A DNA stretch of 64,000 nucleotides from an uncultured bacterium (GCA_964624405.1 CAZUXA010000008.1:25078-89077); one strand, 5' to 3'; positions 2,725 to 62,092 are shown, counted from the stretch's first letter. Numbers and translations are program-made. The notes: generated by a model from the letters alone, not told the origin.

Positions 2725-2797
2725 GGCGCGACCTTTCCTAATGTAAAAGACGCAGGTACAAAGTTACAGCATTATATAGGAATGAAAGCCGGTGAAG

Positions 2798-5221: not shown

Positions 5222-5234
5222 GGCGGGGTTCCTC

Positions 5235-6578: not shown

Positions 6579-7320
6579 CGAGCATGTCCTCCATGATTCG
6601 AAGGGCCTTCAGGGGAAGCCTCTTCTCAAGGTGTGTCTCTGTGTAATCCCTAAGAAGGTTCAGGCACTGCAGGTAGCCTCCGGGCCACAGCCTTACCTTC
6701 ACCAGTTTCTCCAGCGGCGTTCCGGCGGACCTGGCCAGAAAACCCATCAGCCCCGGCGCCACCGTTTCCTGACCGGGACCGCATTCAACGCATACCATAC
6801 CCCCGGCCCGGGGGTTCCACCTGGGATTGTCGGGCCGGGCCTTTCCGCACAGGGCGCAGACTTCCGCCTGCAAGCCGTGGCCGGAAAGGGCCAGAAGCCT
6901 CTGAATCCCCCCGCACAGTACAGGCATGGGGTAAGCCCCGGTTTCAAGCAGGCTGAACACCGTATCCAGCAGGTGATAAACCGGCTCGGAGGGCTCGTTC
7001 CCATGGCTGACCACCGACAGCAGCCACTCCGTGAACACCCCTGCGGCGGCAAAGGCCCTGGGGTTTTCCCGAAGCCCCTCCCTGTGCCTGAGCACCGTAA
7101 CATCCATGGCGGTGTCGATCTCGCGCCCCTCCCGGCGGGAGAGGGTAAATTCACCTTCCGAAAAGAGCTCGACCCGGCCCTGAAAACTTCCCCTGGGCCG
7201 GAGGGAGCCCTTTGCCATGACACTGGTTCGCCCAAGGTCGAGGGAGTAGAGGGTGATTATAAGCGATGATTCGCTCCAGCGTACCCTCCTGAGCACAAAC
7301 CCGGGGGTGGTGAGCCTCAA
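6568..7320 (-). CDS. recO: DNA repair protein RecO
   Basis: The N-terminal OB-fold region VLRRVRWSESSLIITLYS and a C4 zinc motif CALCG...CVEC are present, at about 250 aa. Confidence 0.8.
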   Translation of the reverse strand: MRLTTPGFVLRRVRWSESSLIITLYSLDLGRTSVMAKGSLRPRGSFQGRVELFSEGEFTLSRREGREIDTAMDVTVLRHREGLRENPRAFAAAGVFTEWLLSVVSHGNEPSEPVYHLLDTVFSLLETGAYPMPVLCGGIQRLLALSGHGLQAEVCALCGKARPDNPRWNPRAGGMVCVECGPGQETVAPGLMGFLARSAGTPLEKLVKVRLWPGGYLQCLNLLRDYTETHLEKRLPLKALRIMEDMLDAT

Positions 7321-8522
7321 TCGGCCCTTTCCAGGGGGGAGACCTTGATAAGAATAATCCGCTGTCCCCGCACCTTTTCCACGGTGAACAGATGGCCTTC
7401 CACTTCCACCGTCTCCCCCGGACGGGGAATGTGCCCGAGCCTCCGGTAGACCAGACCCGCAACGGTTTCGTAGTCGTCATCCTCTTCAAAGGATGTGTCG
7501 AGAAGATCGTTCAGATCGTCAACCGGAAGCCTTCCGTCCACCCGGAAAGCCCCCCGCCCCAGGGAAAAGGAGAGGGGGGACTCGGTATCGTACTCATCCC
7601 TTATCTCCCCGAACACCTCTTCCACAAGATCTTCAAGGGTGACGATTCCCGCGGTTCCCCCGTACTCGTCCACCACGATTGCCATGTGAATCCTGTGGGT
7701 TTGAAACTCACGGAACAGCTCATCTATCCGCTTGTACTCCGGTACGAAATAGGCTTCTCTAAGGATTTCTTTCATCTGGAAGGACTGCTTGTTCTCCGCC
7801 AGCACATCCAGCAGATCCTTTGTGTAAAGCAGGCCGGCGATGTCGTCAATCTTTTCGCGGTAGACCGGTATTCTGGAATGACCCGCCTTCCGGACCCTGG
7901 CCACCACATCCGCGAGATCGTCCGAAAGCGGTAGGCAGACCATGTCTATCCGGGGGACCATCACTTCCCTTACAATCCTGTCCGAAAAGTTCAGGACCGA
8001 GTCGACCATTTCCTGTTCCTTCTCGAGGTCGCCTGCGTCGCCTTTTTCCCGTCTCTGTTCCAGCCACATTATGTCCGGAGGAGTGAAGGCCCACTCTTCC
8101 GGCATGGCTTCCTCAGGTTTGATCCTTCCCAGAAACAGGCCGGCGGGAACCGTGAAAACAATTCTTGTGAGCAGCATGGGCAGTTTCAGCACCGGCGCCG
8201 CCGCGTCGGGATGATTATGGGCCAGCCAGGCCGGAAGAACCTCGCCGAGCAGGATGGACGCCGTCAGAAAGAGAACCCACTTAAGGGGAGAGAAGCCCTG
8301 GGAGCCGGCGCCGGCCAGCAGCGCGCACCCCGAACCCATGAGGGCATGCCCGACAACCCTGGCAAGCCAGAGCACCCTGAGCCTGGCCCCGGCCTCCCGG
8401 CGCCTTTGGGCCGGATCCCTGCCCTCTTGCTCAACGAGGGCCGGCAAAGCCGCCCGAGCCGCGGACGAAGTTGCGGTTACCAGAAAACCGGCAAGAAGAG
8501 CCCCCATCCCGAAAGGGTTCAC
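7317..8522 (-). CDS. CNNM/HlyC-CorC family transporter (DUF21-CBS pair-CorC_HlyC)
   Basis: An N-terminal membrane domain is followed by tandem CBS domains and a C-terminal CorC-like transporter-associated domain. It sits in the conserved phoH-ybeY-corC neighbourhood. Confidence 0.75.
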   Translation of the reverse strand: MNPFGMGALLAGFLVTATSSAARAALPALVEQEGRDPAQRRREAGARLRVLWLARVVGHALMGSGCALLAGAGSQGFSPLKWVLFLTASILLGEVLPAWLAHNHPDAAAPVLKLPMLLTRIVFTVPAGLFLGRIKPEEAMPEEWAFTPPDIMWLEQRREKGDAGDLEKEQEMVDSVLNFSDRIVREVMVPRIDMVCLPLSDDLADVVARVRKAGHSRIPVYREKIDDIAGLLYTKDLLDVLAENKQSFQMKEILREAYFVPEYKRIDELFREFQTHRIHMAIVVDEYGGTAGIVTLEDLVEEVFGEIRDEYDTESPLSFSLGRGAFRVDGRLPVDDLNDLLDTSFEEDDDYETVAGLVYRRLGHIPRPGETVEVEGHLFTVEKVRGQRIILIKVSPLERAD

Positions 8523-8941
8523 TTCATGACCCCGGCCAGGAACCCGGCGGTAAGGCCCTCCATCAGTTCAGCCTTCTTCGGTGTGTGGTGGCTGTAACCC
8601 CGGAGATGAAGCCAGCCGTGTATGATCCGTTCCACAAGGTTTTCAAGGGGGGGCGCCAGGCGGCCATCCACGAAGATGGTTCCCTCCGGGGGGGCACCGT
8701 GATCCGAAAGATCGAAAGTAAGAACATCGGTGGGCCTGTCCAGCATTCGGAACCGCAGGTTCAGCATTCGCATCATGCCCGGATCGCAGACCACCACCTC
8801 GATACGGCCCTCCCCCTCCAATAGCGGCGCAAGCCTTGAATGCAGCCCCTGAAGCACAGGGGACGGATTCTCGAGAATGGTTTCTATGATCAGGTTGGAG
8901 GACCGGTCAGGAACCAACGGGATAGTCCTTGACTCTTTCAT
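8519..8941 (-). CDS. ybeY: rRNA maturation endoribonuclease YbeY
   Basis: The H-x-x-x-H-x5-H zinc motif IIHGWLHLRGYSH is present, at about 140 aa. Confidence 0.85.
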   Translation of the reverse strand: MKESRTIPLVPDRSSNLIIETILENPSPVLQGLHSRLAPLLEGEGRIEVVVCDPGMMRMLNLRFRMLDRPTDVLTFDLSDHGAPPEGTIFVDGRLAPPLENLVERIIHGWLHLRGYSHHTPKKAELMEGLTAGFLAGVMK

Positions 8942-10937
8942 AGTCCGTCCTGTTCAGAATGTCCATGAAGACATGCCAGACATCCTCCTGTTTGGATCTG
9001 TTCAGGCCGCATTGGTCAAATTGACCTTCGGCGTCTTTTTCCTGAATCGTGCGCTTCACGGCCTGGGCTATCTCATCCTTGTCGTTCAGCATTCGGGCGG
9101 CGCTGGAAGCGGCGTCGGCGGTCATCACCAGGGCCGCCTCGATGGACCTGGGGGGCGGCCCGGGATACTCGAAGGCTCGTTCATCGACAACCTCACCCGG
9201 CCGGGCATTTTTGCGGGCCTTCACCAGAAAGCTCATGGCCCTTCCTGTTCCGTGGTGCTCACGGATGATGTCGCCGACTTCCTGGGGAAGGTGGTGTTTC
9301 CTGGCCAGTTTCAGACCGCTGGCCACATGGTCGATGATAACAGCGGCGCTTTCGTAGGGGTCCATGTGGTCATGGGGGTTGTAGAAGGCCTGGTCGGTCA
9401 TGTTTTCAATGAACATTCCGGGCTGTTTCAACTTGCCGATGTCGTGGTAGTAGCCCCCCATCCTGGCAAGGTCCTGGTCTGCGCCCAGCTGCCTCGCCGC
9501 GGCGGAGGCCAGTTCCGCCACCTGCATGGAGTGCTGGTAGGTTCCCATGGCCTCGCTTCTCATTCTTACCCGGAGAGGATGGCTGTCGCTGAGAAGCCCG
9601 GCATATGTGAGGGGGGTGGTGACCCTGAAGAGGAGTTCCACCGGATGGATCAGAACCCTGGCAATGGCAATGGAGATGAAGGGAACACCGGCGAGACGGG
9701 CCACGATCCCCAGGTTGAAGGCGTAGCCCGGCCCTATCCACATGGTGTGAAGCGCCCAGTAAACCAGCACGCTGAAAGCGATGGAACTCAGCAGTGCGAG
9801 GGAGATGCCCCGCTCTGAAACCTGGCGAAATACACCCGAAGTGGAAATCGCCGGCAGGGCCGATACGATGAACAGCGTAAAGGGGCTTTCGCTTCCCAGA
9901 GCGGCAAGGGCGCTGAAGAGCAGGGCGAGAAACCAGGAATGGTACACCCCGGAGGAATCGAAGAACACCGCGGTCATGCATGCTCCGAAAACGCTGAACG
10001 CGATCACCCTGGATCCGGGGTCAGCCTTCCAGAGCAGCCCGGTGCATACCAGGGCCAGCATCCATATGCTTCCGAGAAGAAGCACCCTGAACGGAGAAGT
10101 CAGAACCTTGCCCATGCACTTCGCTCCGTAGGCGATTCCCATTACAACGATGAATACCGGGGGGATCAGCCTTGCCGCGGCCCGGAGCGGCCCGGGGTAG
10201 GATGCGGCGCTGTTCATGGCGTTGAAAACCCGGAGGAACTCATGATCGGCGATACCCCCCATGCGCAGCAGCGTATCTCCCTGCAGGTATACCCTTTCCA
10301 CTCTGTCCACCCGGTTCGCCGCCTGATTCGCGGCGCTGTCCGTGGCGGATGGTACCGGAATAAGATCCGCCCTGAGGAAGTCCGCGAGGCTTTCCGCAAA
10401 CTCGGGGAAAGCGGGTTGAAGAACCCTGCGCAGCGAGGCTCGGGCTTCGCGGATATCGGTGTATGACTGCATGACAGCATGGGTTCTGGTGTTGTCGCCG
10501 TGGACAACCACCACTGAGTCGCTGCTGGTAAAGGCCCGCAGCGCTTCCATGTCTATGATGCCGTTTCCGTAATAATCGTTTCGTTCGATTCCCGCGGTGT
10601 AACTGGAATCAGCGCCGAGGTTTTCAAGGGCAACCCGGAGTTCCGCAAGTGAGCGCCGGCGCAAAGAGCTGTCAAGCTGTAGAACAACCGGAGCCGCGAC
10701 TCTGGCCAGGTTCCTGAGGGAATCCAGGGCTTCCCGGGAGTATTCCAGTTCAAACCTCACCGGAGTGATGATGTCGGTGGAGACCGGTTCGCCCAGGGTG
10801 GGATTCCAATCGGAAAAAACCGCCTTGCCCCCGAACAGCGCTACCCATATCGTGAGAATACCGCCGGCGACCACAACGGCCATGGTCTTCCTGCCCATGC
10901 TACTCCTCATGTTCGTCGGCGCTTCCAAAAGCTTCAA
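8907..10937 (-). CDS. 7TM receptor with intracellular HD hydrolase (HDIG domain; YqfF/PgpH family). The start is uncertain, with alternative in-frame Met codons at 10910 and 10883.
   Basis: A multi-pass membrane N-terminal half is followed by an HD domain containing HDIGK...HH. It overlaps the phoH stop, as is typical for the phoH-yqfF-ybeY cluster. Confidence 0.75.
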   Translation of the reverse strand: MKLLEAPTNMRSSMGRKTMAVVVAGGILTIWVALFGGKAVFSDWNPTLGEPVSTDIITPVRFELEYSREALDSLRNLARVAAPVVLQLDSSLRRRSLAELRVALENLGADSSYTAGIERNDYYGNGIIDMEALRAFTSSDSVVVVHGDNTRTHAVMQSYTDIREARASLRRVLQPAFPEFAESLADFLRADLIPVPSATDSAANQAANRVDRVERVYLQGDTLLRMGGIADHEFLRVFNAMNSAASYPGPLRAAARLIPPVFIVVMGIAYGAKCMGKVLTSPFRVLLLGSIWMLALVCTGLLWKADPGSRVIAFSVFGACMTAVFFDSSGVYHSWFLALLFSALAALGSESPFTLFIVSALPAISTSGVFRQVSERGISLALLSSIAFSVLVYWALHTMWIGPGYAFNLGIVARLAGVPFISIAIARVLIHPVELLFRVTTPLTYAGLLSDSHPLRVRMRSEAMGTYQHSMQVAELASAAARQLGADQDLARMGGYYHDIGKLKQPGMFIENMTDQAFYNPHDHMDPYESAAVIIDHVASGLKLARKHHLPQEVGDIIREHHGTGRAMSFLVKARKNARPGEVVDERAFEYPGPPPRSIEAALVMTADAASSAARMLNDKDEIAQAVKRTIQEKDAEGQFDQCGLNRSKQEDVWHVFMDILNRTDYERVKDYPVGS

Positions 10938-11844
10938 TGATTTTCTGAACCAGGGGGTGTCTCACCACATCTTCCTTTTCCAGGTAGACAAAAGCAACTT
11001 CATTCACTCCCCGGAGTATTTTCTGTATTCTGACAAGCCCGGAGCTTGACTGTGGTTTAATATCAATCTGCGTCACATCGCCTGTGACCACAAGCCGGGA
11101 TCCGTAACCCATTCGGGTGAGAAACATTTTGAGCTGGGTAAGGGTTGTGTTCTGGGCTTCATCGAGTATAACGAATGAATTGTTCAGGGTTCGGCCCCGC
11201 ATGTACGCCAGGGGCGCCACCTCTATGATTCCGGCTTCCATGTTCCTTGCCACTCCCGCCGGCGTCAGTGTGTCGTCGAGTGAATCGTAAATGGGCCTGA
11301 GATAAGGGTCGATCTTCTGTTGAAGATCGCCGGGAAGAAAACCCAGGTTTTCGCCGGCCTCCACCGCGGGCCGGGTTAGAATAATCCTCTCGACCCTTCC
11401 GTCCCGCAGGGCGCTCACCGCGGCGGCCACCGCCAGAAAGGTCTTGCCGGTTCCGGCGGGGCCTATGCTGAACACAAGCTCATGGTTGAGCATGGATTTC
11501 AGATAGTACTCCTGACCGGGTGTTCTGGGAACGATTCTGCCCGCCCGCCCCGGCACTTCGAGAACGATGCCGGAAGCCTTCATTTCCGGAAACTCAAGGG
11601 CTTTGACCAGCGCTCCGGCGCTTACCTTTCCGCAGGAACGATACTCGGCCAGCAGCCTTTCAACCGCTGCCTGGGCCCGATCCAGAGACCTCGGGGTGCC
11701 GGAAAAGATCAGTGTGGAATCACGGTAGACCGCAGACACCCCGAGAGCCCTGCATATCTCCCGAAGGTTGGCATCACCCGAACCGAGCAGATGCCTGGCG
11801 TCGTCGGGTGGAACCGGAATGCGTCTTCTTGAGGGCGCTTTCAT
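10900..11844 (-). CDS. phoH: PhoH-like ATPase
   Basis: The Walker A motif GPAGTGKT is present, and the sequence reads as PhoH family throughout. Confidence 0.9.
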   Translation of the reverse strand: MKAPSRRRIPVPPDDARHLLGSGDANLREICRALGVSAVYRDSTLIFSGTPRSLDRAQAAVERLLAEYRSCGKVSAGALVKALEFPEMKASGIVLEVPGRAGRIVPRTPGQEYYLKSMLNHELVFSIGPAGTGKTFLAVAAAVSALRDGRVERIILTRPAVEAGENLGFLPGDLQQKIDPYLRPIYDSLDDTLTPAGVARNMEAGIIEVAPLAYMRGRTLNNSFVILDEAQNTTLTQLKMFLTRMGYGSRLVVTGDVTQIDIKPQSSSGLVRIQKILRGVNEVAFVYLEKEDVVRHPLVQKIIEAFGSADEHEE

Positions 11845-11860
11845 TTTCAGCTGATGTGAA

Positions 11861-11893
11861 CAGGCTCCCCGTTCGATTGGAACGGGGAGCCTG
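11861..11893. terminator. perfect 14-bp stem-loop (caggctccccgttc/gaacggggagcctg) between the lysM-gene stop and the phoH start
   Basis: The inverted repeat is seen directly. The flanking U-tract is weak, so this could be a terminator or an RNA-processing hairpin. Confidence 0.5.
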
Positions 11894-11915
11894 AAACTTG
11901 GTCCACTATCCGTTG

Positions 11916-12581
11916 TTAGCGGGAAGTACCGCGGGTTGTGCCGCGGGGGATAGTGAGAACCTGCCCCGGGAAGATCAGGTTGGGGTTGCTGATCTTGTCA
12001 CGGTTGGCTTCGTAAAGCTGGGGCCACATTCCGCGATCGCCGTAGACGATGCCGTATCCGGCGATTTTGCCCAGGAAGTCACCCTCGATGACGGTGTAGC
12101 TGGTGGCGTAGGGAACCGGAACGATGATGGTGTCGCCGGCGTAGATCAGGTTGGGATTGCTGATCTTGTCGCGGTTGCGGTCGTAGATCTTGGGCCACTG
12201 GGTGCCATCGTTGAAGTAGTAATGGTAGCTGGCAATGCGCCAGAGGCTCTCGCCCTCGACGATGCGGTGGGGAACGCCGGAGCCCCGAAGGCGGGTGATT
12301 TCGCCGCGAAGCCAGGAAATGTCCTGGTTGAGCTGGTTGACGATGCCCTGAAGTTCGTCTCTCTGGGCGCGGAGAGGAAGCACTCTGGCCTCCCACTCGG
12401 CAACCAGGGCGTCGGCCTCGGCCTTGCGCCACTCCCAGTAGGCAATCTGCTTGGCGATGTTCTTGTTGCCCCAGGACTCGACTTCAGTCTGGGTGAGCTG
12501 AGACAGTTCCTCTGCGGACCAGGTGCGGGCGAAGCCCACGGCCGCGACGAGGATCAGAGCCAACACGAATAAGTTACGCAT
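11916..12581 (-). CDS. secreted LysM-domain protein with N-terminal coiled coil (two LysM repeats)
   Basis: A signal peptide is followed by two repeats of the NRDKISNPNLI motif. Each repeat is followed by a LysM-like core (YTVIEGDFLGKIA and PGQVLTIP). Confidence 0.7.
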   Translation of the reverse strand: MRNLFVLALILVAAVGFARTWSAEELSQLTQTEVESWGNKNIAKQIAYWEWRKAEADALVAEWEARVLPLRAQRDELQGIVNQLNQDISWLRGEITRLRGSGVPHRIVEGESLWRIASYHYYFNDGTQWPKIYDRNRDKISNPNLIYAGDTIIVPVPYATSYTVIEGDFLGKIAGYGIVYGDRGMWPQLYEANRDKISNPNLIFPGQVLTIPRGTTRGTSR

Positions 12582-30374: not shown

Positions 30375-30800
30375 ATGCGGCCCAAAACCCCGGAAGTCAC
30401 CGTTGACGCCATCATAGAGTTTGAAAACCGCCGGATTGTACTGGTTGAAAGGAAGTTTCCGCCGAAGGGCTGGGCTCTGCCAGGGGGATTCGTAGACCCC
30501 GGGGAAAGCCTGTTCCAGGCGGTGAAACGGGAAGCACTTGAGGAAACCGGCCTTTCCATCGAAGTAATGTCGCTTTTCCATGTTTACTCCAGGCCCTGGA
30601 GAGACCCGAGGGGAGACACCATAAGCGCCGTATACCACTGCAGGGCCCGGGGAAAACCCGTGGCCGGAGACGACGCCTCAATCGCCAGGGCGTTCCCCTT
30701 CGACGGTCTGCCCGGGAACATGGCTTTCGACCACCGGGAGATAATCGAAGACTTCCTGCGGTGGAAGAACACCGGAATCAGGCCATCCCTGGAAGCCTAG
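30375..30800 (+). CDS. NUDIX hydrolase (start at ATG 30375 with AGGAGGG RBS)
   Basis: The Nudix box GGFVDPGESLFQAVKREALEETG is present. Confidence 0.85.
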   Translation: MRPKTPEVTVDAIIEFENRRIVLVERKFPPKGWALPGGFVDPGESLFQAVKREALEETGLSIEVMSLFHVYSRPWRDPRGDTISAVYHCRARGKPVAGDDASIARAFPFDGLPGNMAFDHREIIEDFLRWKNTGIRPSLEA

Positions 30801-33016
30801 CGGAGTACCGTGGTTTTTCTCAGGTCGCAACCCCCGGAGCCGGATACCCGCTGAATGTAAACCCCGCAAGGCAGGTCATTGGTGTTCCAACTCGCGGTGT
30901 GCCCGCCGGCGGAGAGTTCTCCACGGTGAAGGACATCAACAATCCTTCCCGCCAGATCAAACACCATCAACTCCACATGGCCCGGCGAGGGAACCGAGAA
31001 CTCAACCTCAACCATTCCTGACACCGGATTGGACAAACCCGGAAGAAAAACGGGAGTACCGTGGACAGCCTCCCCCTCAATCCCGGTGGTGGTCCAGACT
31101 ATCTGGGTTACCGCCGGCTCTGAATAGCCGAACTCATTGCTGTTGGCAACCACCAGCACCGTTGTGACATCCTCCCCCTCCGGCCTGGTCACCAACGGCA
31201 CGAAGCAGGCGTTGCCGGGGGTTGCCCACAAGAATGTGCGGCTTTCATCCGAGTTGAGTGAATACACCATGTAATTGTCGCCGTCCGAGGGATCCCACCT
31301 CAGCCTGAGTGTTCCGTTGAAGTCGTCCACCTGGTTGAACTGCTCTACCACAAGACCGGTGGGAGGCGCTGGAACAACGGGTTCGCCCCGGATCACTCCA
31401 AGCCTTCCGATTCTAATCTGATAGTCTTCGATGACGGTCGGGCTCTGAAAGCGCAGGGCGATTATGGAGAGGGTGTGACCCGCCAGAGCCGAGAGGGGAA
31501 ACTGCCACGTGTTCCATCCCTCCGACACACCGTCGGGTACCTGGAAGAAGAAAAAATCCATGGGATCAGACGTTGTGGAAAGGGCCACTTCCATTCCCGA
31601 TGGCGCTGCGGCCTCTCCGCGGTTCCAGACGATTACGAAACTGTCATCCCCCTGCACTGGAGCGTCGGTCTTGTACAGATAGAGCATTGTGGTGTTTGCC
31701 GGGGACAGCTCACCGCCGACCTTCAGGCAGCTTCCGCCGTGGTAGGGGATTTCCCAGTCCAGTTCCGGATACAGCGGAGTTCCGCCGCTGTTCGAGATGT
31801 ACCTCCAGGTTGGAAGCACATCCATCTGGCTTCGGTTGTGCCAGGGGTTCTGGGAAAGAACCTCACCCTCCACCGCGGTGCGGTAGCCCTGTCCGGTGTT
31901 GAAGCTGGTCACGAAGGGAAACGATGTTACGGGAGTTTTGGCCGGAATGTAGTGGGCAATCCCCTTCCAGGGGTATGTTGTCCCGGTGTTCCCCGGATCC
32001 CGGTTCGGCCCCACCCAGAAGTAACTCTCCCGGGAGTAGAAGGCGGCGTGACTCGAAGCGTTGGAGTAAGTCCAGTTCGGACAGTAGAAGCCAAGGCTTG
32101 CCCTGTGGTCCTGTCCCTCCGGGAAAAGCCCTTCCCAGTTGACTCCGGTGTTGTATCCGTTGGACTGGACGTCAACTCCGGCGTAGAGGTCGTAGGGGCT
32201 CCGCCCCAGAGCAATGGCATGGTTCCCGGAACTGGTGAGCCCCGCTGAACTCCACCAGAAGTTCAGGAACATCTCGTCGCTGACGGTCTGGTCTTCATAC
32301 TGAAAGAACCAGTCATTATTGGCGTTCAGGGCATTCTGCCAGGAGATTGCGCCTGTTTTGGTCATGGCGTCGTACCATTGAATCCGCAGATCCGAGTTCA
32401 GCTGAATGTAGATCATCATGTCCCGCATGTCTTCCGCAAGCTGGGTGTTGCCCCCCGCGGTCTCCTGGTTGATGAACCAGCCGTCGAAGCCATAGTACTC
32501 CGCCACCTCGATGAGCTTGTCCGCCACAGGGAATGTGTCTCCCTCCTTCTGAACGAAATCCCATACCCACTGAATCTGGCCGCCGTACTGAACCGGCGGA
32601 AAGAAAACGGTGCCGTAAACAGGCACGCCGTTCCTGTGAGCGGCATCTGTCACTCCGGGGTTCGGCGCCAGTATCAGCCCCTCCCCGGCGCTTCCCCCCC
32701 AGAAAGTCAGGTGTTCGATGTACTGCCAGTATCCGAAGGCGTAAGTGTCGATTCCAGGGCCGCCCTGGGACGGGTTGAAACTGGTGGACGGGTACATGAT
32801 GCTGATTGATGTCACTCCCGCCTGGCCGGGTATTGCGTGGGCGTTGCACTGGGTGTCACCCAGGCTTCTGGTGGCAAGTGGAATCGCGCTTCGATTGTAG
32901 GGGGCGTCCGGGTCGGTGTTCGGGCTCCAGCTGAGAAGATCGGCGGGGTGCCAGTACGAGGCGTAGGGCTGGCCAGGCAGGAATTGCGCCATCAGAACCG
33001 CGGCAAGAATGATCAT
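30797..33016 (-). CDS. GH85 endo-beta-N-acetylglucosaminidase with a T9SS C-terminal sorting domain
   Basis: The GH85 signatures AAHRNGV and FDGWFINQET (catalytic N/E) are present. A C-terminal Por_Secre_tail-like segment reads NPVSGMVEVEF...VFDLAGRIV...CGVYIQRV. Confidence 0.7.
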   Translation of the reverse strand: MIILAAVLMAQFLPGQPYASYWHPADLLSWSPNTDPDAPYNRSAIPLATRSLGDTQCNAHAIPGQAGVTSISIMYPSTSFNPSQGGPGIDTYAFGYWQYIEHLTFWGGSAGEGLILAPNPGVTDAAHRNGVPVYGTVFFPPVQYGGQIQWVWDFVQKEGDTFPVADKLIEVAEYYGFDGWFINQETAGGNTQLAEDMRDMMIYIQLNSDLRIQWYDAMTKTGAISWQNALNANNDWFFQYEDQTVSDEMFLNFWWSSAGLTSSGNHAIALGRSPYDLYAGVDVQSNGYNTGVNWEGLFPEGQDHRASLGFYCPNWTYSNASSHAAFYSRESYFWVGPNRDPGNTGTTYPWKGIAHYIPAKTPVTSFPFVTSFNTGQGYRTAVEGEVLSQNPWHNRSQMDVLPTWRYISNSGGTPLYPELDWEIPYHGGSCLKVGGELSPANTTMLYLYKTDAPVQGDDSFVIVWNRGEAAAPSGMEVALSTTSDPMDFFFFQVPDGVSEGWNTWQFPLSALAGHTLSIIALRFQSPTVIEDYQIRIGRLGVIRGEPVVPAPPTGLVVEQFNQVDDFNGTLRLRWDPSDGDNYMVYSLNSDESRTFLWATPGNACFVPLVTRPEGEDVTTVLVVANSNEFGYSEPAVTQIVWTTTGIEGEAVHGTPVFLPGLSNPVSGMVEVEFSVPSPGHVELMVFDLAGRIVDVLHRGELSAGGHTASWNTNDLPCGVYIQRVSGSGGCDLRKTTVLR

Positions 33017-44294: not shown

Positions 44295-46019
44295 CTAGCG
44301 AACCACGGTCATACGGCTTGCCGCGGTGCCGGCCGGGGTCGCGGCCCGCACGAAGTAAATGCCGCTGCCCAGGTTCTCGGGAAGGCTCCAGATGTAGCTG
44401 TGGGTACCCGATGCGAGGTTGCCGGAGTGAACCTGCGCCACGGCTCTGCCCGCCACATCGAATACCTGGATGGACACCGCCCCCTCAAAGGGCATGTGGA
44501 GGGAAAAGGCCGCCGCGTTCGAAACGGGGTTGGGAGAAACGCCGGAAAGAAGCTGCGCGGAAGGCGGGACATCAAAATGGGTTTCGCCCTCGGTACCCAC
44601 CATCTGAAGCGCTGCCAGCGCAGCCTGGTAGGCATCCACCCTGCCGGCTCCGTAGGTGTTGTCCTTGCCCGCCGAGCCCAGGTCGAGGGAAGTCATCTCG
44701 ATGAGGGAATCAAGCTGTGCGACGGTGAGCTCAGGGTTGATGCTGAGAAGCAGCGCCGCGACTCCCGCCAGGTGAGGCGTGGCCATGGAGGTGCCGCTCA
44801 TGGTGGTGTATCCGCTGTAAAGGGCGGTGCTGAGAACATCAACACCCGGGCCGCTGATGTCGGGCTTGATCAGGGGCTGTGAATCACTGTAATCGAACCA
44901 GGGGGACACGCCTCCCCACCAGGTCACCGGACCCCGGCTGGACCAGCTGGCGATCTGGTCGCTGGTATTGGTTGCTCCTACTGTGACCACCGCGGTCTGG
45001 CCGCCCTCAAAAATCTGATCGGGATGGAACCAGGGGGGAGGGCAGTCACCGCTGGCCCTGATGGTTCCCGCTCCGGACCCGCTGTTGCCCGCGGCGACAC
45101 TGTGGTACACACCCGCGAGCAGAAGGTTCTCCTCAGCTGTTCTGAGGGTGGCATTGCCCACCGGGGTTGTTCCCAGTGACATGGTGAGCACCGAAGCGCC
45201 GTTCTCGGTGGCGAACTCCATGGCCTGTATCCAGGTGGGAAAACCGCCGGTGTAGTAGTGGATCCTCAAAGCCATGATGGTGGCCGAGGGCGCCACGCCG
45301 GTCTGGGTTCCCGCGGTGCCGTCGCCGGCCACTGTGCCGGCGCAATGGGTTCCGTGACCGTCATCGTCCATGGGATCCAGAGGGTTGCCGCTTCCGTAGA
45401 AGTTGTAACCGTAATGGTAGCCGGCATCGGTGTCGTGCCACATGTTGTTCCCGAGATCGGAATGGTTGTAGTTCACACCGGTGTCGATGACGCCAACGAT
45501 CACCCCCTGCCCCTCGTAGCCCAGGGCCCACACATCAGGGGCGTTGATCTTGTCCACACCCCAGGCGTTCGCCATGAGCAGTTCTTCCCTGGTTGCCTCC
45601 CGGCGCTCCACAGGCTCGATTAGAGCGCCTTCCGGGGCGCCGTGGTCAATGAAGCGGACATCGGGCCTGGCGGCGAGAAGCCTCACGACTTCAGGCGCGG
45701 CTTCACAGTAGAAACCGTTCAGCAGCCAGAAGGGAACCAGCCTTTCAACCCGGTGGTCTTCCAGAAATGCCAGAACACTCTGCTGTGAAAGCGCAGCGTT
45801 GGACTTGAGAGCCTCCACCACGAACTGCTGCCTGTCCCCCCGGGTCATTCCCGCGGTGGCGGCCTGAATCCAGTCAATGTCCGGAGCGGCGCTCATGTGT
45901 ACCACAATGGGAACCAGCTCTCCGGGGACAGCCCCGGCCATGTTCTGGAGAACATCGGGGTGAATGTATCCGGAGTTGGCAACTCCGGCCATAACCATGA
46001 GAAGCAGAATCTTCATCAC
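44295..46019 (-). CDS. S8 subtilisin-like serine protease with T9SS C-terminal sorting domain
   Basis: The catalytic D (VIDTGV), H (HGTHCAGT) and S (GTSMATPHLAG) are present. The C-terminal Por_Secre_tail reads PNPVSN...IQVFDVAGRAV...GIYFVRAA. Confidence 0.85.
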   Translation of the reverse strand: MMKILLLMVMAGVANSGYIHPDVLQNMAGAVPGELVPIVVHMSAAPDIDWIQAATAGMTRGDRQQFVVEALKSNAALSQQSVLAFLEDHRVERLVPFWLLNGFYCEAAPEVVRLLAARPDVRFIDHGAPEGALIEPVERREATREELLMANAWGVDKINAPDVWALGYEGQGVIVGVIDTGVNYNHSDLGNNMWHDTDAGYHYGYNFYGSGNPLDPMDDDGHGTHCAGTVAGDGTAGTQTGVAPSATIMALRIHYYTGGFPTWIQAMEFATENGASVLTMSLGTTPVGNATLRTAEENLLLAGVYHSVAAGNSGSGAGTIRASGDCPPPWFHPDQIFEGGQTAVVTVGATNTSDQIASWSSRGPVTWWGGVSPWFDYSDSQPLIKPDISGPGVDVLSTALYSGYTTMSGTSMATPHLAGVAALLLSINPELTVAQLDSLIEMTSLDLGSAGKDNTYGAGRVDAYQAALAALQMVGTEGETHFDVPPSAQLLSGVSPNPVSNAAAFSLHMPFEGAVSIQVFDVAGRAVAQVHSGNLASGTHSYIWSLPENLGSGIYFVRAATPAGTAASRMTVVR

Positions 46020-56667: not shown

Positions 56668-57363
56668 ATGGTGGTCAGACAGTTTCGCTACGGAAACGAC
56701 AATCTGGGCTACGTGGTTCACGGGAAGACCGAGGCTCTCGCGATTGACGGCGGCGCCATCGGCCCGGTCACAAGGTATCTGGAAGAGAACGGTCTTGCGC
56801 TGACCATGATCACCAACACCCACTCCCACAGCGACCACACCGTCGGCAACGATGCCCTGATGACCCGGGACACCCGGCTCATCACCCCGGAAGAGGCCGC
56901 CGGCGCCGGTGAAATCATTGTGGAAGGCCACAGCATCCGGGTGATTCCCACACCAGGCCACACCCTGGACAGCGTTTGCTTCCACACTCCGGGATTCCTC
57001 ATGGCGGGGGACACCCTGTTCATTGGCAAGGTGGGCCGCTGCTTCTCCGGCAGAACAGACCTTCTGCTTCGCTCGATCCGAACACTGATGACCCTTCCCG
57101 GAGACACGGTTCTCTACCCGGGCCACGACTATGTGGAGGAGTACCTCGGCTGGTGCAGAACCCTGGAACCCAAGAACCGCCATCTGGACCAGGCCATGCG
57201 CCTTTATGACCGTAGTGATGTGCGCTCCACGCTGGGCAGGGAGAAACTGGTAAACCCCTTCCTGCACATGGACAACGACGATGTGGAGGAAGCCCTGAAA
57301 CGGAGAGGGTTGCCCCGGGAAAGCATCGGGGAGCGATGGAACTCGCTGCTTGGTCTTATGTGA
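56668..57363 (+). CDS. MBL-fold metallo-hydrolase (glyoxalase II-like)
   Basis: The THSHSDH motif and downstream His/Asp ligands are present. Confidence 0.85.
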   Translation: MVVRQFRYGNDNLGYVVHGKTEALAIDGGAIGPVTRYLEENGLALTMITNTHSHSDHTVGNDALMTRDTRLITPEEAAGAGEIIVEGHSIRVIPTPGHTLDSVCFHTPGFLMAGDTLFIGKVGRCFSGRTDLLLRSIRTLMTLPGDTVLYPGHDYVEEYLGWCRTLEPKNRHLDQAMRLYDRSDVRSTLGREKLVNPFLHMDNDDVEEALKRRGLPRESIGERWNSLLGLM

Positions 57364-57774
57364 AAGCTCCTTGGAACATCCGGTTGATGGAGCCTGGTAC
57401 GCCCGTCTTCCGTTCAGTCGAACCTTTTCCGGTGAAACATACGCTCTGATTCTTCCCCGACCCGATGTGATGGTGAAGCCGAAATCACCTCGGGGGCCGT
57501 TGCGTAACCCGCTCATCTTCGCCCGGGAACTCCATGAGGAAATGCTCCGGCATAACCTCAAGAGGGTGCAGATTGGGCAAAGACATGGCGTACCTCGGGC
57601 AGGATCACCCAGTGGCTCTGCCTGCTGAAGCTGCCGGATGAAAAGCAGAGGGAGGTTTAAACCCTGGAGGACCACTGGGACCGAAGGGTGGTGACGGAGC
57701 GGGGGTTGAGGAAGTAGGCCATAAATGCGGAATGATTTGAATAAGGAGAGAGATGTGAGCCATGATGACAGGTA

Positions 57775-57812
57775 TTGACACTCCCCCCCCCCCCCTATTT
57801 ATTCTATTGACC
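57775..57812 (+). promoter_or_regulatory. putative promoter: perfect -35 TTGACA followed by a spacer that is mostly a C13 homopolymer (57783-57795), then an AT-rich -10-like TATTTATTCTA
   Basis: The hexamer and homopolymer are seen directly. They lie about 100 nt upstream of the island operon ATG 57897. Confidence 0.4.
57783..57795. repeat. poly(C)13 homopolymeric tract (candidate slipped-strand phase-variation site)
   Basis: Thirteen consecutive C residues are counted in the sequence. Confidence 0.9.
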
Positions 57813-57896
57813 AGGCATAACAAAAGTGTCTTTTGATAAGGAATCCTATTACATGTTCTCAGTCTCGTGACAGGGCTGTTGAACGCAGGAGGGAAA

Positions 57897-59069
57897 ATGG
57901 TTTTCGTGATCCTTGCTCTGACGGTGCTGATGGTTTCTACTCCATCACCCAGAGAACTATCGGAAAGAACTGAACCCTGGGTACGGGAAGATGTCACAAT
58001 CACCTCGGTATCCGAGTTCCACACCTCCGACTTCCTCCGTGAGGGGGAAAGGGTTCACCTCCTTCACCACGCCTTCCTCGATGACGAGAACGAAACACTC
58101 CGCACCGTTGTCTGCACTGACACGCGGGTGATCGTGCTGGAAGAGGGTTTGGTGCAGAGAGAGATAGTTCTGGAGCACACGATCAATCATGCCAATATAT
58201 CCCCAATGGGAATGTTTCTGGTTTCCCATCGAGACATGGATGCTCCTTCAAGTGCTCGATCCCTTAGGGTTGATACCGAGACGGGGGAACAGATCCATTT
58301 CACCACTCACCCCGGGCGGGAAATGCAGGTCAATGAACCATGGACATGGCCACAGGATGACGGTTCGCTGGTAACTAGACTGGGAAGCTACCTATGGTTT
58401 TTTGATACTGATCTAAACCCTGCGCAAGAACTCCGTGTCTCACCTTGGGGTTCCGATGTATGGGCTGCAAGAAACACAGACATTGTTTTTGTTTCCGGCA
58501 CAACACTGTCGGCTTACAACCGTCGTGGCGAACTTCTATGGACCATCTCCGATGAGTACAATCGGGCCAGGGTCAACAGTGCAGCGATTTCTGATGACGG
58601 CAGCCTCGTGGGGCTAGCATCGCGTGATGGGGCATTCCTTTTTGACGGAACTACAGGAACCGTCGTCGCGGAGTACTTCACAACCGGGAATACTGGCTTT
58701 GGTGTTGGTCAGATCATCTTAAGCCCTTTGGGAAAAAGATTTCTTGTTATACGGTTAGACGATCGAGTTATCGTATCATCGGGTTGTCTGGAAACAGGAG
58801 AGCAATACTCCTTTGCTTTGGGTGCCCGTGTTCGAGCCATACTGGATTGCGGGATCGCGCTTCTGGATTCCATGGTATTGGATTCACACCTCAATCCGTA
58901 CTACGTTCCGGGCAGGCATATCTACGCGATCTCCTCTTCAGGGAGAAGACTTGTCCAGGCTTCCGAGTGGTTCCCGACGCACCCTAACTCTGCCTTCGCT
59001 GCTACTGGTATACAGAGCGTTCTGCCTGCTGGATTCCAGGTTATGGAGCTTCAGGCAGGAGGCAACTGA
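57897..59069 (+). CDS. secreted PQQ/WD-like beta-propeller protein (start ATG 57897, AGGAGGG RBS)
   Basis: A signal peptide is present, with repeated ...GELLWT.../...DGSLVG...DG... blade-like motifs. It is translationally coupled to the next gene by an ATGA-type overlap. Confidence 0.55.
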   Translation: MVFVILALTVLMVSTPSPRELSERTEPWVREDVTITSVSEFHTSDFLREGERVHLLHHAFLDDENETLRTVVCTDTRVIVLEEGLVQREIVLEHTINHANISPMGMFLVSHRDMDAPSSARSLRVDTETGEQIHFTTHPGREMQVNEPWTWPQDDGSLVTRLGSYLWFFDTDLNPAQELRVSPWGSDVWAARNTDIVFVSGTTLSAYNRRGELLWTISDEYNRARVNSAAISDDGSLVGLASRDGAFLFDGTTGTVVAEYFTTGNTGFGVGQIILSPLGKRFLVIRLDDRVIVSSGCLETGEQYSFALGARVRAILDCGIALLDSMVLDSHLNPYYVPGRHIYAISSSGRRLVQASEWFPTHPNSAFAATGIQSVLPAGFQVMELQAGGN

Positions 59070-59071
59070 TC

Positions 59072-61813
59072 ATGAAGAAGACTGCCTTCACTTTCTACTG
59101 CTGCCTGATCGGGATGCTTGGCTCCGGTGCTGCAACAAGTGATCCATTCGACTACAACCCTGGCTTCATCCGATTCCCTTTTGCTCGAAGTGGTTCTGAC
59201 TTCACTAACACCTGCAAGGGATATGGCGACAACAATATGGGTTTTGGTCTGAAGCTCTTCCACGCTGGCGTGGACTTCCAGGCAGAAGACACAACGGAGT
59301 ATGTCAGAACACCTTTCGACCCCGCTTATGTCATTCGTGCAGATTCAGATAGTCTTCAGCTTGACTGGCGTGTTATCTTCGGTCTTTCCGCCAACGCAGA
59401 AACGGGATGGGGATATCACCACCTTTATCGTCCCCAAGGATTTGCTGTAACCGACTCATTTACAGGCCTTGTTTCACCCGTAGTCGTAACGCCGGATCTT
59501 GGTCCTCATGTGCACATTGACTGGTGCATTAACTTGAATAGTATCTATGTGGAGGGTAATCTTATCGTATACGACAGCTACATCAATCCCCTTGACTACT
59601 TTCTGAACAAGCCTTCGAACTATGACCATCCTGAGCTTGGAGAGGTTTCAGGCTCTTCGACCGGGCTACGAATACAGAATACACAGGGCTTTTTGCCGGA
59701 CACAGCTGTTTTCGGCCAGGTTCATTTTGTGGCTCGTCCGGTTTCTGCTCCGGACTATGGTTCAACATCAGATTCCGTCGGAGTCAGATACCTTCGGCAC
59801 AGGGTGCTCAGGCAGGATCCTTACACCGGCGAGTATGCTCCTCTTCCATGGTACGACTGGCGAACACTGTTCAGTATGAACGGGTTCATCCCTTTTCAGG
59901 GTGATGAGTTCTTTGATTTCGTATACGCCACAACTTCAGGCCACTATCACAGCGAATACCTCCTTAACAACTGCGGCACCACCCCAGTTGGTCTGAACGC
60001 TGATTCTGCCTTCAACAATGTCTGGACTGCCGGGTACGATCGCGCGCAGGACTGGGCTGATGGTGTGTTCTGCCGGGGAGCCTTCGATACGAGGCTGGGA
60101 ACTAGTACTTACAACCAGCAGAGCTGCGACAACAGCAACGCCTTGATCCCCGACGGCCGCTACTGCGTTGAGATGGAGGCGTACTCACATGGAAACTCGC
60201 AAGCGCAGACATGGAGGCTCCCTGTGCTTGATGTGGCAGCCGAGAACCTGTCGCCTGGCGACTCGTCAAATGTACGAGGGTTCATCGTGGACAACTTTGC
60301 TCCCCATGTTGCCTCTCTTCTCGTTTACTTGCCTGTGGAACCCGGTTCTCCCGACACTATCTACAACGCTGAGTGGATTCTGTCCCCATCCATGGACCAA
60401 CGACACCTCGCTGGAGGAGATCTTGCGATGTACCTCAGTGAATCCCAAGAGCAATGGGTTGGTGTTGCTGTGCTCTTCTCGGAAACGATGGCTTCTTTGC
60501 CTGACATTTGGATAAGCGGAGAATGGGGAGGTCAGATACGATGGACTTCAGCTAACCTCACCGCGACAGAGTGGGACTATGACAACTTGGGAGAACCTCC
60601 TTCTGCGCCTCCTGGCCATTCCTGGCAGTCTTACAGGACAGATTCCGGAATTACGACCTACCATGGAGCCCTAAGACTGAACATTCAAGGGGGAGCAGAC
60701 CTCTCAGGAAACAGCATTGACGCCAACCCGGCAACAATTGCGGTCCGTGATGCTAACGGCAACTTCTCCGGTTATGAACAAGGCACTGATAACGGATACA
60801 TCTGGGGCACAACCATCCCGATTTGGTCTAAAAATAGCTCAGATCTAACAAAAGTGGAAAGCTACAATACTCGATACGGGTTTCTTGAGGCTACGATCAG
60901 CTATTTCTTCGGTCAGTACAAAATACTCGCTGGGGCTATACCTATCACTCAATACAGCAGTTGCCCCTACTGGCATGGCTTCTGGATGATGAGGAATCAA
61001 AGTTCACAGCCCCCCTCCATGACTTCACCGCGAGTGTGTATAATCGATTTTAATGGAACAGTTGTTCGAACTTTTCTTTTGGGTAATGCGCACACGCTCT
61101 ATCCAGTAAGTATCGATTCTGAGAACTCCTCCCATATTGATGTGCATCTACAGACAGGCAGTGTTGAAGATGGAACTTTCGGCGACTACCTCTGGGTTTC
61201 AATAACAAATTACGAACCAAGTATGGTGTTCTGGGGAGCGTACTATGTAACTTTTCTAAAATGCTTCACCGCACAGGGGTTGACCAGTCATCACCACATA
61301 TCGAAGGGGTTTGCTTACTTTCGTGATTCAAATGAGATCGTGTTCTACGACTCATTACGGTCAGTTTCTACCAATGGAAGCTCTTGTATTTATGACTGGA
61401 TTGAGCAAAACCCCAACGAACCTTACAACATCCATGGAAGCTACAATGGTAGTTACTTCAATTTCAGCCCCCCCGGAATTGGCACCGGAGATACCGATCC
61501 GGTCAGATCAAGCCGTCAAGACTCTGGTATTGCTGATGCTTCGGAAGTTCCTTCTGTTGCCTTCGGTCTTTCGATCAATCGGAATCCAGTCTCTTCGGAG
61601 TTGATGCTCCGGATCAGTCTGGAGCGTTCTGGTCCTGTTGAAGTGTTCATCTATGACATTGCAGGCAGAACAGTGCTGAAGGCTCTCGAGGAGGACTTGT
61701 CCGCAGGAGTACACAGCCTGACTGTGCCGGTTCATCTTCCCGGCGGCATCTACTTCTGCAGGCTCCGTTCCGGGTCCGACATCGCCTCGGAGAAACTGGT
61801 GATCCTTCGATAG
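59072..61813 (+). CDS. large secreted protein with an N-terminal M23 (lysostaphin/LytM-like) peptidase domain, central W/Y/G/N-rich region, and a T9SS C-terminal sorting domain
   Basis: The M23 motifs HAGVDF (H-x-x-x-D, aa about 64) and HVH (aa about 146) are present. Their spacing is lysostaphin-like (..GVDF..TEYVRTPFDPAYVI..GWGYHHLY..GPHVHIDW). The C-terminal segment is NPVSSELMLRISL...VFIYDIAGRTV...GIYFCRL. Confidence 0.6.
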   Translation: MKKTAFTFYCCLIGMLGSGAATSDPFDYNPGFIRFPFARSGSDFTNTCKGYGDNNMGFGLKLFHAGVDFQAEDTTEYVRTPFDPAYVIRADSDSLQLDWRVIFGLSANAETGWGYHHLYRPQGFAVTDSFTGLVSPVVVTPDLGPHVHIDWCINLNSIYVEGNLIVYDSYINPLDYFLNKPSNYDHPELGEVSGSSTGLRIQNTQGFLPDTAVFGQVHFVARPVSAPDYGSTSDSVGVRYLRHRVLRQDPYTGEYAPLPWYDWRTLFSMNGFIPFQGDEFFDFVYATTSGHYHSEYLLNNCGTTPVGLNADSAFNNVWTAGYDRAQDWADGVFCRGAFDTRLGTSTYNQQSCDNSNALIPDGRYCVEMEAYSHGNSQAQTWRLPVLDVAAENLSPGDSSNVRGFIVDNFAPHVASLLVYLPVEPGSPDTIYNAEWILSPSMDQRHLAGGDLAMYLSESQEQWVGVAVLFSETMASLPDIWISGEWGGQIRWTSANLTATEWDYDNLGEPPSAPPGHSWQSYRTDSGITTYHGALRLNIQGGADLSGNSIDANPATIAVRDANGNFSGYEQGTDNGYIWGTTIPIWSKNSSDLTKVESYNTRYGFLEATISYFFGQYKILAGAIPITQYSSCPYWHGFWMMRNQSSQPPSMTSPRVCIIDFNGTVVRTFLLGNAHTLYPVSIDSENSSHIDVHLQTGSVEDGTFGDYLWVSITNYEPSMVFWGAYYVTFLKCFTAQGLTSHHHISKGFAYFRDSNEIVFYDSLRSVSTNGSSCIYDWIEQNPNEPYNIHGSYNGSYFNFSPPGIGTGDTDPVRSSRQDSGIADASEVPSVAFGLSINRNPVSSELMLRISLERSGPVEVFIYDIAGRTVLKALEEDLSAGVHSLTVPVHLPGGIYFCRLRSGSDIASEKLVILR

Positions 61814-62016: not shown

Positions 62017-62092
62017 TGGCGCTCCCAAGGGGACTCGAACCCCTGTTTCCGGCGTGAGAGGCCAGCGTCCTAGGCCACTAGACGATGGGAGC
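62017..62092 (-). tRNA. tRNA-Glu (anticodon CUC), CCA encoded
   Basis: The reverse complement folds as a canonical cloverleaf. The 7-bp acceptor is GCTCCCA/TGGGAGC, the anticodon stem-loop is CUGGC-CUCUCAC-GCCGG, and the T-arm is AGGGG-TTCGAGT-CCCCT. The overall sequence is close to bacterial tRNA-Glu. Confidence 0.85.

Follow-up and report, generated by a model that had tools for sequence, protein, structure and literature searches.

We analysed a 64,000-nucleotide (nt) stretch of DNA from an uncultured bacterium (GCA_964624405.1 CAZUXA010000008.1:25078-89077), referred to below as the window, in which a scan for open reading frames (ORFs) identifies a gene for a 913-residue protein at positions 59072-61813 of the + strand. 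Judged from residue conservation and a predicted fold, the product is probably an active peptidase of family M23 that is exported by the T9SS (type IX secretion system). It is encoded immediately downstream of a second gene (57897..59069, + strand), designated here the partner gene, with which it forms an obligate pair in the loci examined, and the two genes together look like a foreign and mobile cassette. An initial annotation of the window had described a T9SS-sorted, lysostaphin-like M23 enzyme with a co-encoded periplasmic protein and had suggested a toxin/immunity pair. What it observed is confirmed and its interpretation is partly supported: a toxin/immunity role is a plausible prediction, and on several points a chaperone or a scavenging function would suit the observations just as well. 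That the secreted peptidase is neutralised in the periplasm of its producer by the co-encoded partner is, in our judgement, an evenly poised proposition.

Residues 24-200 of the peptidase (59141..59671, + strand) make up a domain that begins directly after the signal peptide, with no intervening pro-domain, and that appears from alignment and modelling to be a genuine, very divergent M23/LytM-type zinc metallopeptidase domain with a complete set of catalytic residues. Both motifs cited in the initial annotation, HAGVD (H64, D68) and HVH (H146, H148), are present, together with a third, YHHL (H117). H64, D68 and H148 are putative zinc ligands, and H117 and H146 are putative catalytic histidines. 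The motifs are spaced by 53 and 29 residues, compared with 50 and 31 in lysostaphin (H32, H82, H113). Close homologues of the peptidase number only nine among 5.8 billion clustered proteins, and searches of the PDB by sequence, with the single protein or with a 5-sequence profile, gave no M23 match. A word-indexed search with the extended alignment returned only 5 proteins. Greater depth was reached by searching 1.84 billion representatives exhaustively with HMMER, using the N-terminal profile; this yielded 25 proteins, many of them 830-1020 residues long and only 20-38% identical. In the resulting N-terminal alignment of 21 sequences (A6), G112, H117, H146 and H148 are invariant, and H64, D68, P36, G50, Y51, G52, D53 and W113 are at least 90% conserved; a full-length alignment of 20 sequences gives the same picture of conservation. 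The conserved columns thus comprise an HxxxD motif, a middle catalytic His and an HxH motif, which is the M23 constellation.

Profile and structure comparisons point in the same direction. Searched against the PDB, the A6 profile matches leukocyte cell-derived chemotaxin 2 (LECT2; 5B0H, 9NON), which we take to be a protein of the M23 fold, with E=3.5e-5 and 26.5 bits over a span that includes both motifs. This vertebrate protein is the only significant sequence link between the bacterial family and a solved structure, and no bacterial M23 enzyme provides one; LytU reached only E=0.53 in the search of the PDB with the family profile. An AlphaFold model built on the A6 alignment has a core (window protein residues 64-153) with a predicted local distance difference test score (pLDDT) of 80-88, and Foldseek searches with this model returned 39 consecutive M23 matches, headed by lysostaphin, LytM, Csd3, DipM and EnpA. 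In a library of viral structures, the named matches were mostly phage M23 lysins. When aligned with hhalign, H64, D68, H117, H146 and H148 pair with lysostaphin H32, D36, H82, H113 and H115 (the lysostaphin sequence used is 100% identical to 4LXC), so that the putative zinc ligands, which the initial annotation proposed to check by proper alignment, are retained opposite H32, D36 and H115. Its description of the domain as lysostaphin-like proved too specific, as all solved M23 structures are equally distant from the peptidase (12-26% identity) and there is no sign of Gly-Gly specificity.

The export signals lie at the two ends of the protein. At the N-terminus, MKKTAFTFYCCLIGMLGSGAATS (59072..59137, + strand) has the canonical n-, h- and c-regions of a signal peptide by inspection only, with KK in the n-region, then a hydrophobic core, and small residues preceding D24. 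The C-terminal domain of Por/T9SS type noted in the initial annotation is borne out by two models: residues 838-911 (61583..61804, + strand) match Por_Secre_tail, PF18962, with 28.4 bits (cut-off, 27) and TIGR04183 with 34.8 bits (cut-off, 23), which identifies a type A sorting domain. The full-length family profile also matches solved C-terminal domains of PorU, the gingipains and other T9SS cargo in the PDB, and Por_Secre_tail was detected in 11 of the 20 family members scanned (the window protein and 19 relatives). Two further hydrolases in the window, both of native GC content and both predicted T9SS cargo, carry the same kind of sorting domain: a GH85 endo-beta-N-acetylhexosaminidase (30797-33016, - strand; family sorting-domain hidden Markov model [HMM], E=1.8e-13) and an S8 subtilase (44295-46019, - strand; E=1.4e-11). 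This export signal is thus evidently in routine use in the host. Sorting domains are also found on several neighbouring genes in related loci.

The partner gene encodes 390 residues and no T9SS C-terminal domain. Its most plausible start, the ATG at 57897, is preceded, 5 nt upstream, by GGAGGG, and both elements are kept in all related loci; an alternative GTG start at 57867 was rejected because the GTG is not conserved in locus L011. The partner TGA stop lies 2 nt before the peptidase ATG, and a GGAGG sequence is located within the end of the partner gene, so the two genes are almost certainly co-translated, as the initial annotation had proposed. Partner homologues are rare, with only 15 among 5.8 billion proteins. 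The protein begins with a short hydrophobic stretch (residues 1-14, + strand), read as a putative signal peptide by inspection only, which is consistent with a predicted periplasmic or anchored protein. An ultra-conserved segment of ~80 residues follows (residues 15-95; 57939-58181, + strand), and in the 13-member partner family most of the first ~95 residues either never vary or are conserved to at least 90%. In 77 codons of this segment, synonymous differences (12-29) exceed non-synonymous ones (4-13), indicating that constraint acts on the partner protein. Recent gene conversion was considered as a cause of the near-identical N-termini and rejected on the strength of these abundant synonymous differences.

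The remainder of the partner (residues 96-390, ~300 residues, + strand) is a variable region of WD40/PQQ-like propeller type. Searched against the PDB, the partner family profile matches the propellers of RACK1, PkwA and EMC1 with E=1e-4 to 5e-4, most of the 24 PDB matches listed are propeller proteins, and the Pfam matches to PQQ_2, WD40 and NHL are all sub-threshold. The gene reported in the initial annotation is thus real, and its description as a signal-peptide beta-propeller is plausible, if weakly supported. The joining of an ultra-conserved segment, for which bPH_3 matches are sub-threshold only, to a fast-diverging propeller region was noted as a separate feature of the protein.

In every locus examined, the gene directly upstream of the M23-like one is a partner homologue, and 2 nt typically separate the two. 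Close pairs occur in the window and many metagenomic copies, in L002/L001/L003/L005, and in L004, L010, L011, L012 and L013. L012 contains two pairs back to back (3009-6817, - strand; 7474-11917, + strand) beside an IS21 transposase; the divergent pair, in opposite orientation, consists of a 438-residue partner (E=5e-9) and an 830-residue peptidase (E=1e-49, family HMMs), and no sorting domain was detected in the latter. More distant pairs at L014, L015 and L016/L017 have partners recognised at E=1e-19, 3e-17 and 9e-68, respectively. Pairing persists in differing surroundings and where only ~25-40% identity is left between the proteins, and it extends to pairs at ~25-30%. Neighbouring genes are different in every locus and include transposases of IS21, IS91/ISL3 and IS200 type, those near the cassette being found in L012, L014 and L016, and in 8 of 8 loci the cassette is poorer in GC than its flanks. 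In a comparison of five complete pairs, the C-terminal part of the partner diverges in step with the M23 domain and not with the hypervariable segment of the peptidase described below, a pattern that physical linkage could explain as well as interaction. A matched specificity pair, in which the partner propeller would co-vary with the hypervariable segment, was rejected, since L002 and L004 share a segment type and differ in partner type. In two separate assemblies (L016, 7204-9911; L017, 2914-5621) the M23-like gene is split into ORFs of 292 and 636 residues that overlap by 82 nt; given its occurrence in both, the split may be a real frameshift, reflecting a pseudogene or recoding, and not an assembly error.

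Composition sets the cassette apart from the rest of the window, in agreement with the acquired islet of the initial annotation. GC content drops from ~0.60 to 0.51 over 57.4-62.0 kb and is 0.60 in the remainder of the window, and GC content at third codon positions is 0.53 in both cassette genes compared with 0.71-0.76 in adjacent genes. The right boundary of the low-GC region, just past the peptidase gene, is marked by a tRNA-Glu(CTC) gene (62017..62092, - strand) identified by ARAGORN and by the Rfam tRNA model (60 bits). A search of the islet flanks for an att-like direct repeat of the end of the tRNA-Glu gene gave none, and no integrase was found. Comparison with an empty site was attempted by means of the flanking metallo-beta-lactamase (MBL)-fold gene, whose metagenome homologues are at most 53% identical and lack shared synteny. 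Promoter and terminator scans gave counts at or below shuffled expectation. PHROGs and PADLOC returned zero matches for the peptidase, the partner and the helix-turn-helix (HTH) protein encoded upstream, so the cassette fits no known phage family or defence system in these libraries. The closest locus assigned to a genome is in a metagenome-assembled genome (MAG) of candidate division Hyd24-12 (Fermentibacteria), and the window apparently derives from a Fermentibacteria-like genome into which the low-GC cassette was imported. In that MAG locus (L002), a PhdYeFM antitoxin/PIN toxin pair and an extra sigma-70 gene (2628-3319) lie directly upstream of the cassette array, near a contig end, consistent with a variable or mobile region.

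Between the M23 and sorting domains, the peptidase contains three further regions. A second small beta-rich domain (residues 201-300; 59672..59971, + strand) accompanies the M23 domain throughout the family: family matches reach profile positions ~270-285, where the alignment is conserved, and the model shows beta strands with pLDDT 50-80. The central region (residues 301-585; 59972..60826, + strand) is strongly conserved and beta-rich, and many of the columns that are invariant across all 10 homologues fall in residues 360-583. It gave no PDB sequence match; residues 343-372 have a weak FlgD_ig-like match in Pfam. Residues 586-820 (60827..61531, + strand) form a hypervariable segment of three types, 82-95% identical within a type and 17-35% identical between types, flanked by parts that are 54-96% identical. 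This pattern of identity suggests a recombining, swapped module, and by analogy with bacteriocin-type lysins the segment is a candidate for target recognition.

The DNA upstream of the partner gene is also conserved. A region of ~170 nt (57717..57896, + strand) ends with GGAGGG just before the ATG and contains, in order, TTGACA (57775-57780), CT with a 13-C tract (57783-57795) and TATTTA (57796-57801). In an alignment read by eye, it is ~90% or more identical between the window, L002, L012, L011 and L004, exceeding the identity of the coding DNA. The length or purity of the C tract varies among loci and among assemblies of one strain: the tract is C13 in the window and L006-8 and C12 in L009, and L012 differs from L013. 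No Rfam family matched the region, and no covariation indicative of a structured RNA was found. The poly-C tract could be a phase-variable promoter spacer or, on the basis of RNAalifold predictions, an anti-Shine-Dalgarno element. Still further upstream, at the left edge of the cassette, is a decayed ParB-HTH-like gene (57350..57716, + strand), frameshifted and interrupted by stops, so that the homologous HTH reading in the window is split across frames. In L002, L011 and L012 the partner gene is directly preceded by an intact version of 121-128 residues, of which the L011 copy has a sub-threshold match to PF17762 HTH_ParB (E=0.002). The locus appears to be a two-gene mobile cassette that was ancestrally a three-gene one. 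L002 has a second HTH copy, which precedes another T9SS cargo gene (814 residues; Rax2/DUF5122 propeller plus sorting domain), as if the HTH gene marked cargo cassettes.

In the mechanism that we propose, the 913-residue peptidase would be exported by Sec and would then fold in the periplasm, where the T9SS would recognise its type A sorting domain and release the enzyme or attach it to the cell surface. By family precedent, the N-terminal M23 zinc endopeptidase would cut peptide cross-links or stems of bacterial cell walls, while the conserved middle region, together with the hypervariable segment that can be swapped, may position or target the enzyme, the segment setting its target range. 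Because the peptidase lacks an N-terminal pro-domain like those that keep other secreted Gram-negative M23 enzymes latent, the co-translated partner is proposed to act as a pro-domain in trans. As a putatively exported protein of propeller type that, lacking a sorting domain, would stay in the periplasm, the partner would bind and neutralise the peptidase in transit, serving as an immunity or inhibitor protein that protects the producer's own sacculus. That the partner is an inhibitor or immunity factor, as opposed to a chaperone or cofactor, we put at an even chance or slightly below. The enzyme may serve to lyse competitors or prey, or else to digest debris from cell walls. A broader proposal, in which a mobile, possibly phase-variable module with a swappable target segment and a periplasmic propeller immunity factor mediates T9SS-dependent interbacterial antagonism by a peptidoglycan hydrolase, is one we regard as speculative and rather unlikely.

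A number of results weigh against this mechanism, and some of them bear on the identity of the N-terminus itself. The search for a significant M23 HMM hit, put forward in the initial annotation as a check whose failure would refute the assignment, was negative: no Pfam or NCBIfam M23 model matched the peptidase at E<=1, and PF01551 gave no match at E<=0.1 in any of the 20 family members scanned. The AlphaFold model has a mean pLDDT of 67 and is of medium overall quality. Together with a pLDDT of only 30 for a model based on a 5-sequence alignment and an hhalign probability of 8.5% (P=0.004, with correct residue pairing) against a two-sequence lysostaphin/LytM profile, the missing HMM matches speak for motifs that arose by chance in a domain that is not M23. 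We consider this scarcely credible, and the M23 assignment is kept in spite of them, on the grounds of the profile match to LECT2, the predicted fold and the residue alignment with lysostaphin. A different possibility is that the domain is M23 in fold and non-catalytic, a binding module like those of LECT2, EnvC, NlpD and SpoIIQ, in a protein that serves as a surface adhesin or regulator. Degenerate domains of that kind have lost part of the catalytic set; the present family, though otherwise diverged to ~20-38% identity, keeps all five residues unchanged or almost so, and such a role is very unlikely. As to export and the partner, none of the T9SS machinery genes SprA, PorV, PorU and GldKLMN was recognised among the window ORFs scanned; the partner N-terminus has no basic n-region and no lipobox, its signal peptide being assigned by eye; and the propeller assignment rests on E ~1e-4. 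The variable part of the partner does not co-vary with the hypervariable segment among the five complete pairs, and no orphan or arrayed partner genes, of the kind that is often found with immunity genes, were seen (15 partner compared with ~9 close peptidase homologues, so that the partner family is no larger in kind than that of the peptidase). Finally, if the enzyme cuts only a type of cross-bridge that is absent from the producer, immunity would be unneeded.

The lack of orphan partner genes would also make sense if the peptidase were a nutrient-scavenging T9SS exoenzyme, acting on cell-wall debris or proteins in anaerobic-digester sludge, with the partner as its periplasmic chaperone or holdase, required for folding or for passing the enzyme on to the T9SS; strict one-to-one pairing suits a dedicated chaperone equally well as it does immunity. 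Relatives in the host lineage (Hyd24-12/Fermentibacteria) were inferred to be without a number of amino-acid pathways and to depend on extracellular proteases (PMC5030696), and the other hydrolases of the window, GH85 and S8, share the kind of sorting domain. These same two native cargoes, however, have no such partner gene, and the two T9SS reviews searched mention no dedicated chaperones for T9SS cargo (PMC10202324, PMC11205867). Loci of conflict or surface variation, more than those of housekeeping nutrition, are moreover where one would typically expect mobility, low GC content, a hypervariable module and perhaps a contingency tract, and we hold scavenging with a chaperone to be a possible but minority explanation. 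The obligate pairing and translational coupling could likewise reflect a working subunit, with the partner as a substrate-targeting or activating cofactor, or as a receptor, at the surface or in the periplasm, to which the peptidase docks. Propellers often serve as scaffolds for binding proteins or glycans, and there are M23 systems that are heteromeric or use protein activators. On the other hand, a partner without a T9SS C-terminal domain is not expected to exit the periplasm with the enzyme, and among the five complete pairs its variable part does not co-vary with the putatively targeting segment; a subunit role seems improbable.

Should the proposed neutralisation of the peptidase by its partner hold, the consequences would extend beyond this locus. 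Digestive enzymes, adhesins and virulence proteases are the exports for which the T9SS is known, and bacterial killing by its substrates is only hypothesised in the literature that could be searched. A T9SS-exported wall peptidase with a periplasmic neutraliser would make the antagonism hypothesis directly testable and would show how two-step secretion handles cargo that is dangerous in transit. If antagonism itself were established, it would be the first T9SS-dependent case mediated by a peptidoglycan hydrolase and would add a new effector-immunity class in uncultured phyla of the Fibrobacteres-Chlorobi-Bacteroidetes (FCB) group. Even if the partner were just a chaperone, it would be unusual for a single T9SS cargo to have a helper of its own. 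The family also extends the recognised sequence space of M23 enzymes. It is missed by the curated Pfam and NCBIfam M23 models, so proteins of this kind are at present not annotated as M23, and the small number of source names encountered read 'hypothetical protein'. M23 enzymes are of practical interest as lysins, and the swapping of the 235-residue segment suggests a built-in retargeting module.

Comparison with known systems brings out which parts of this anatomy are shared. Lysostaphin and LytM, the staphylococcal M23B glycyl-glycine endopeptidases (4LXC, 2B0P), are only 13-19% identical to the peptidase, to which Pfam M23 is blind, and in contrast to them the catalytic domain here is N-terminal, with ~630 residues of beta-rich, unrelated sequence after it and a T9SS sorting domain. 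Immunity to lysostaphin is conferred by cell-wall modification (Lif/Epr) and is not known to involve a binding protein. Secreted M23A enzymes of Gram-negative bacteria (LasA/staphylolysin, Lysobacter beta-lytic protease and pseudoalterin) use other export routes and have a long N-terminal pro-peptide that is both chaperone and inhibitor. Compared with these (6IK4), the present peptidase has no pro-peptide, is paired with an upstream gene and is apparently routed through the T9SS. In LECT2, which is a signalling protein and not an enzyme, part of the catalytic set is missing, whereas the peptidase retains all five catalytic residues (compare 5B0H).

Cell-wall effectors of the T6SS (type VI secretion system) have periplasmic immunity proteins, Tse1-Tsi1 being an example. 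As in those pairs, a cell-wall hydrolase is encoded beside a gene for a small exported would-be neutraliser in an obligate, mobile unit. The differences are that two-step Sec and T9SS export would expose the producer's periplasm by design, that the catalytic family is another one, and that the partner lies upstream, not downstream; immunity, which is only proposed here, is part of the known T6SS pairs. The TANFOR polymorphic toxins of Bacteroidetes are also modular with swappable parts, and they are the subject of the sole proposal found in which substrates of the T9SS are connected with interbacterial toxins and with immunity genes next to them (PMC7073777). Their T9SS dependence and role in interbacterial competition are only hypothesised, and they have C-terminal nuclease or other toxin domains and no classical C-terminal sorting domain (PMC7073777). 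In the cassette, by contrast, the sorting domain is a bona fide one of type A, the peptidase is N-terminal and the variable segment lies outside the catalytic part.

The overall plan of the peptidase, with signal peptide, hydrolase, beta-sandwich modules and type A sorting domain, is that of classical T9SS cargo such as the gingipains and the S8 and GH85 proteins of the window. Gingipains have an inhibitory prodomain. This prodomain is N-terminal and within the same chain (PMC10202324), and in the reviews searched no dedicated partner gene is described for classical T9SS cargoes (PMC10202324, PMC11205867). A review of T9SS effectors and one of T9SS ecology mention no M23, peptidoglycan-hydrolase, immunity-paired or chaperone-assisted cargo (PMC10202324; PMC11205867), and in a review of predation the Aureispira grappling hook is the only T9SS substrate named (PMC12428579). 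In the searchable literature, no T9SS cargo is described as an M23 enzyme or peptidoglycan hydrolase with a dedicated partner, and the claim of novelty made in the initial annotation is reasonable, though it rests on a predicted function; proteins that combine a Pfam-detectable M23 domain with a sorting domain may well exist undiscussed in annotated genomes. The anatomy is well supported and unusual, and it would be compatible with a T9SS-delivered lysin and its immunity protein. What is new with respect to the systems above is an M23 subfamily invisible to Pfam that is combined with a T9SS sorting domain, tied to a partner, carried in a mobile cassette and equipped with a swappable segment.

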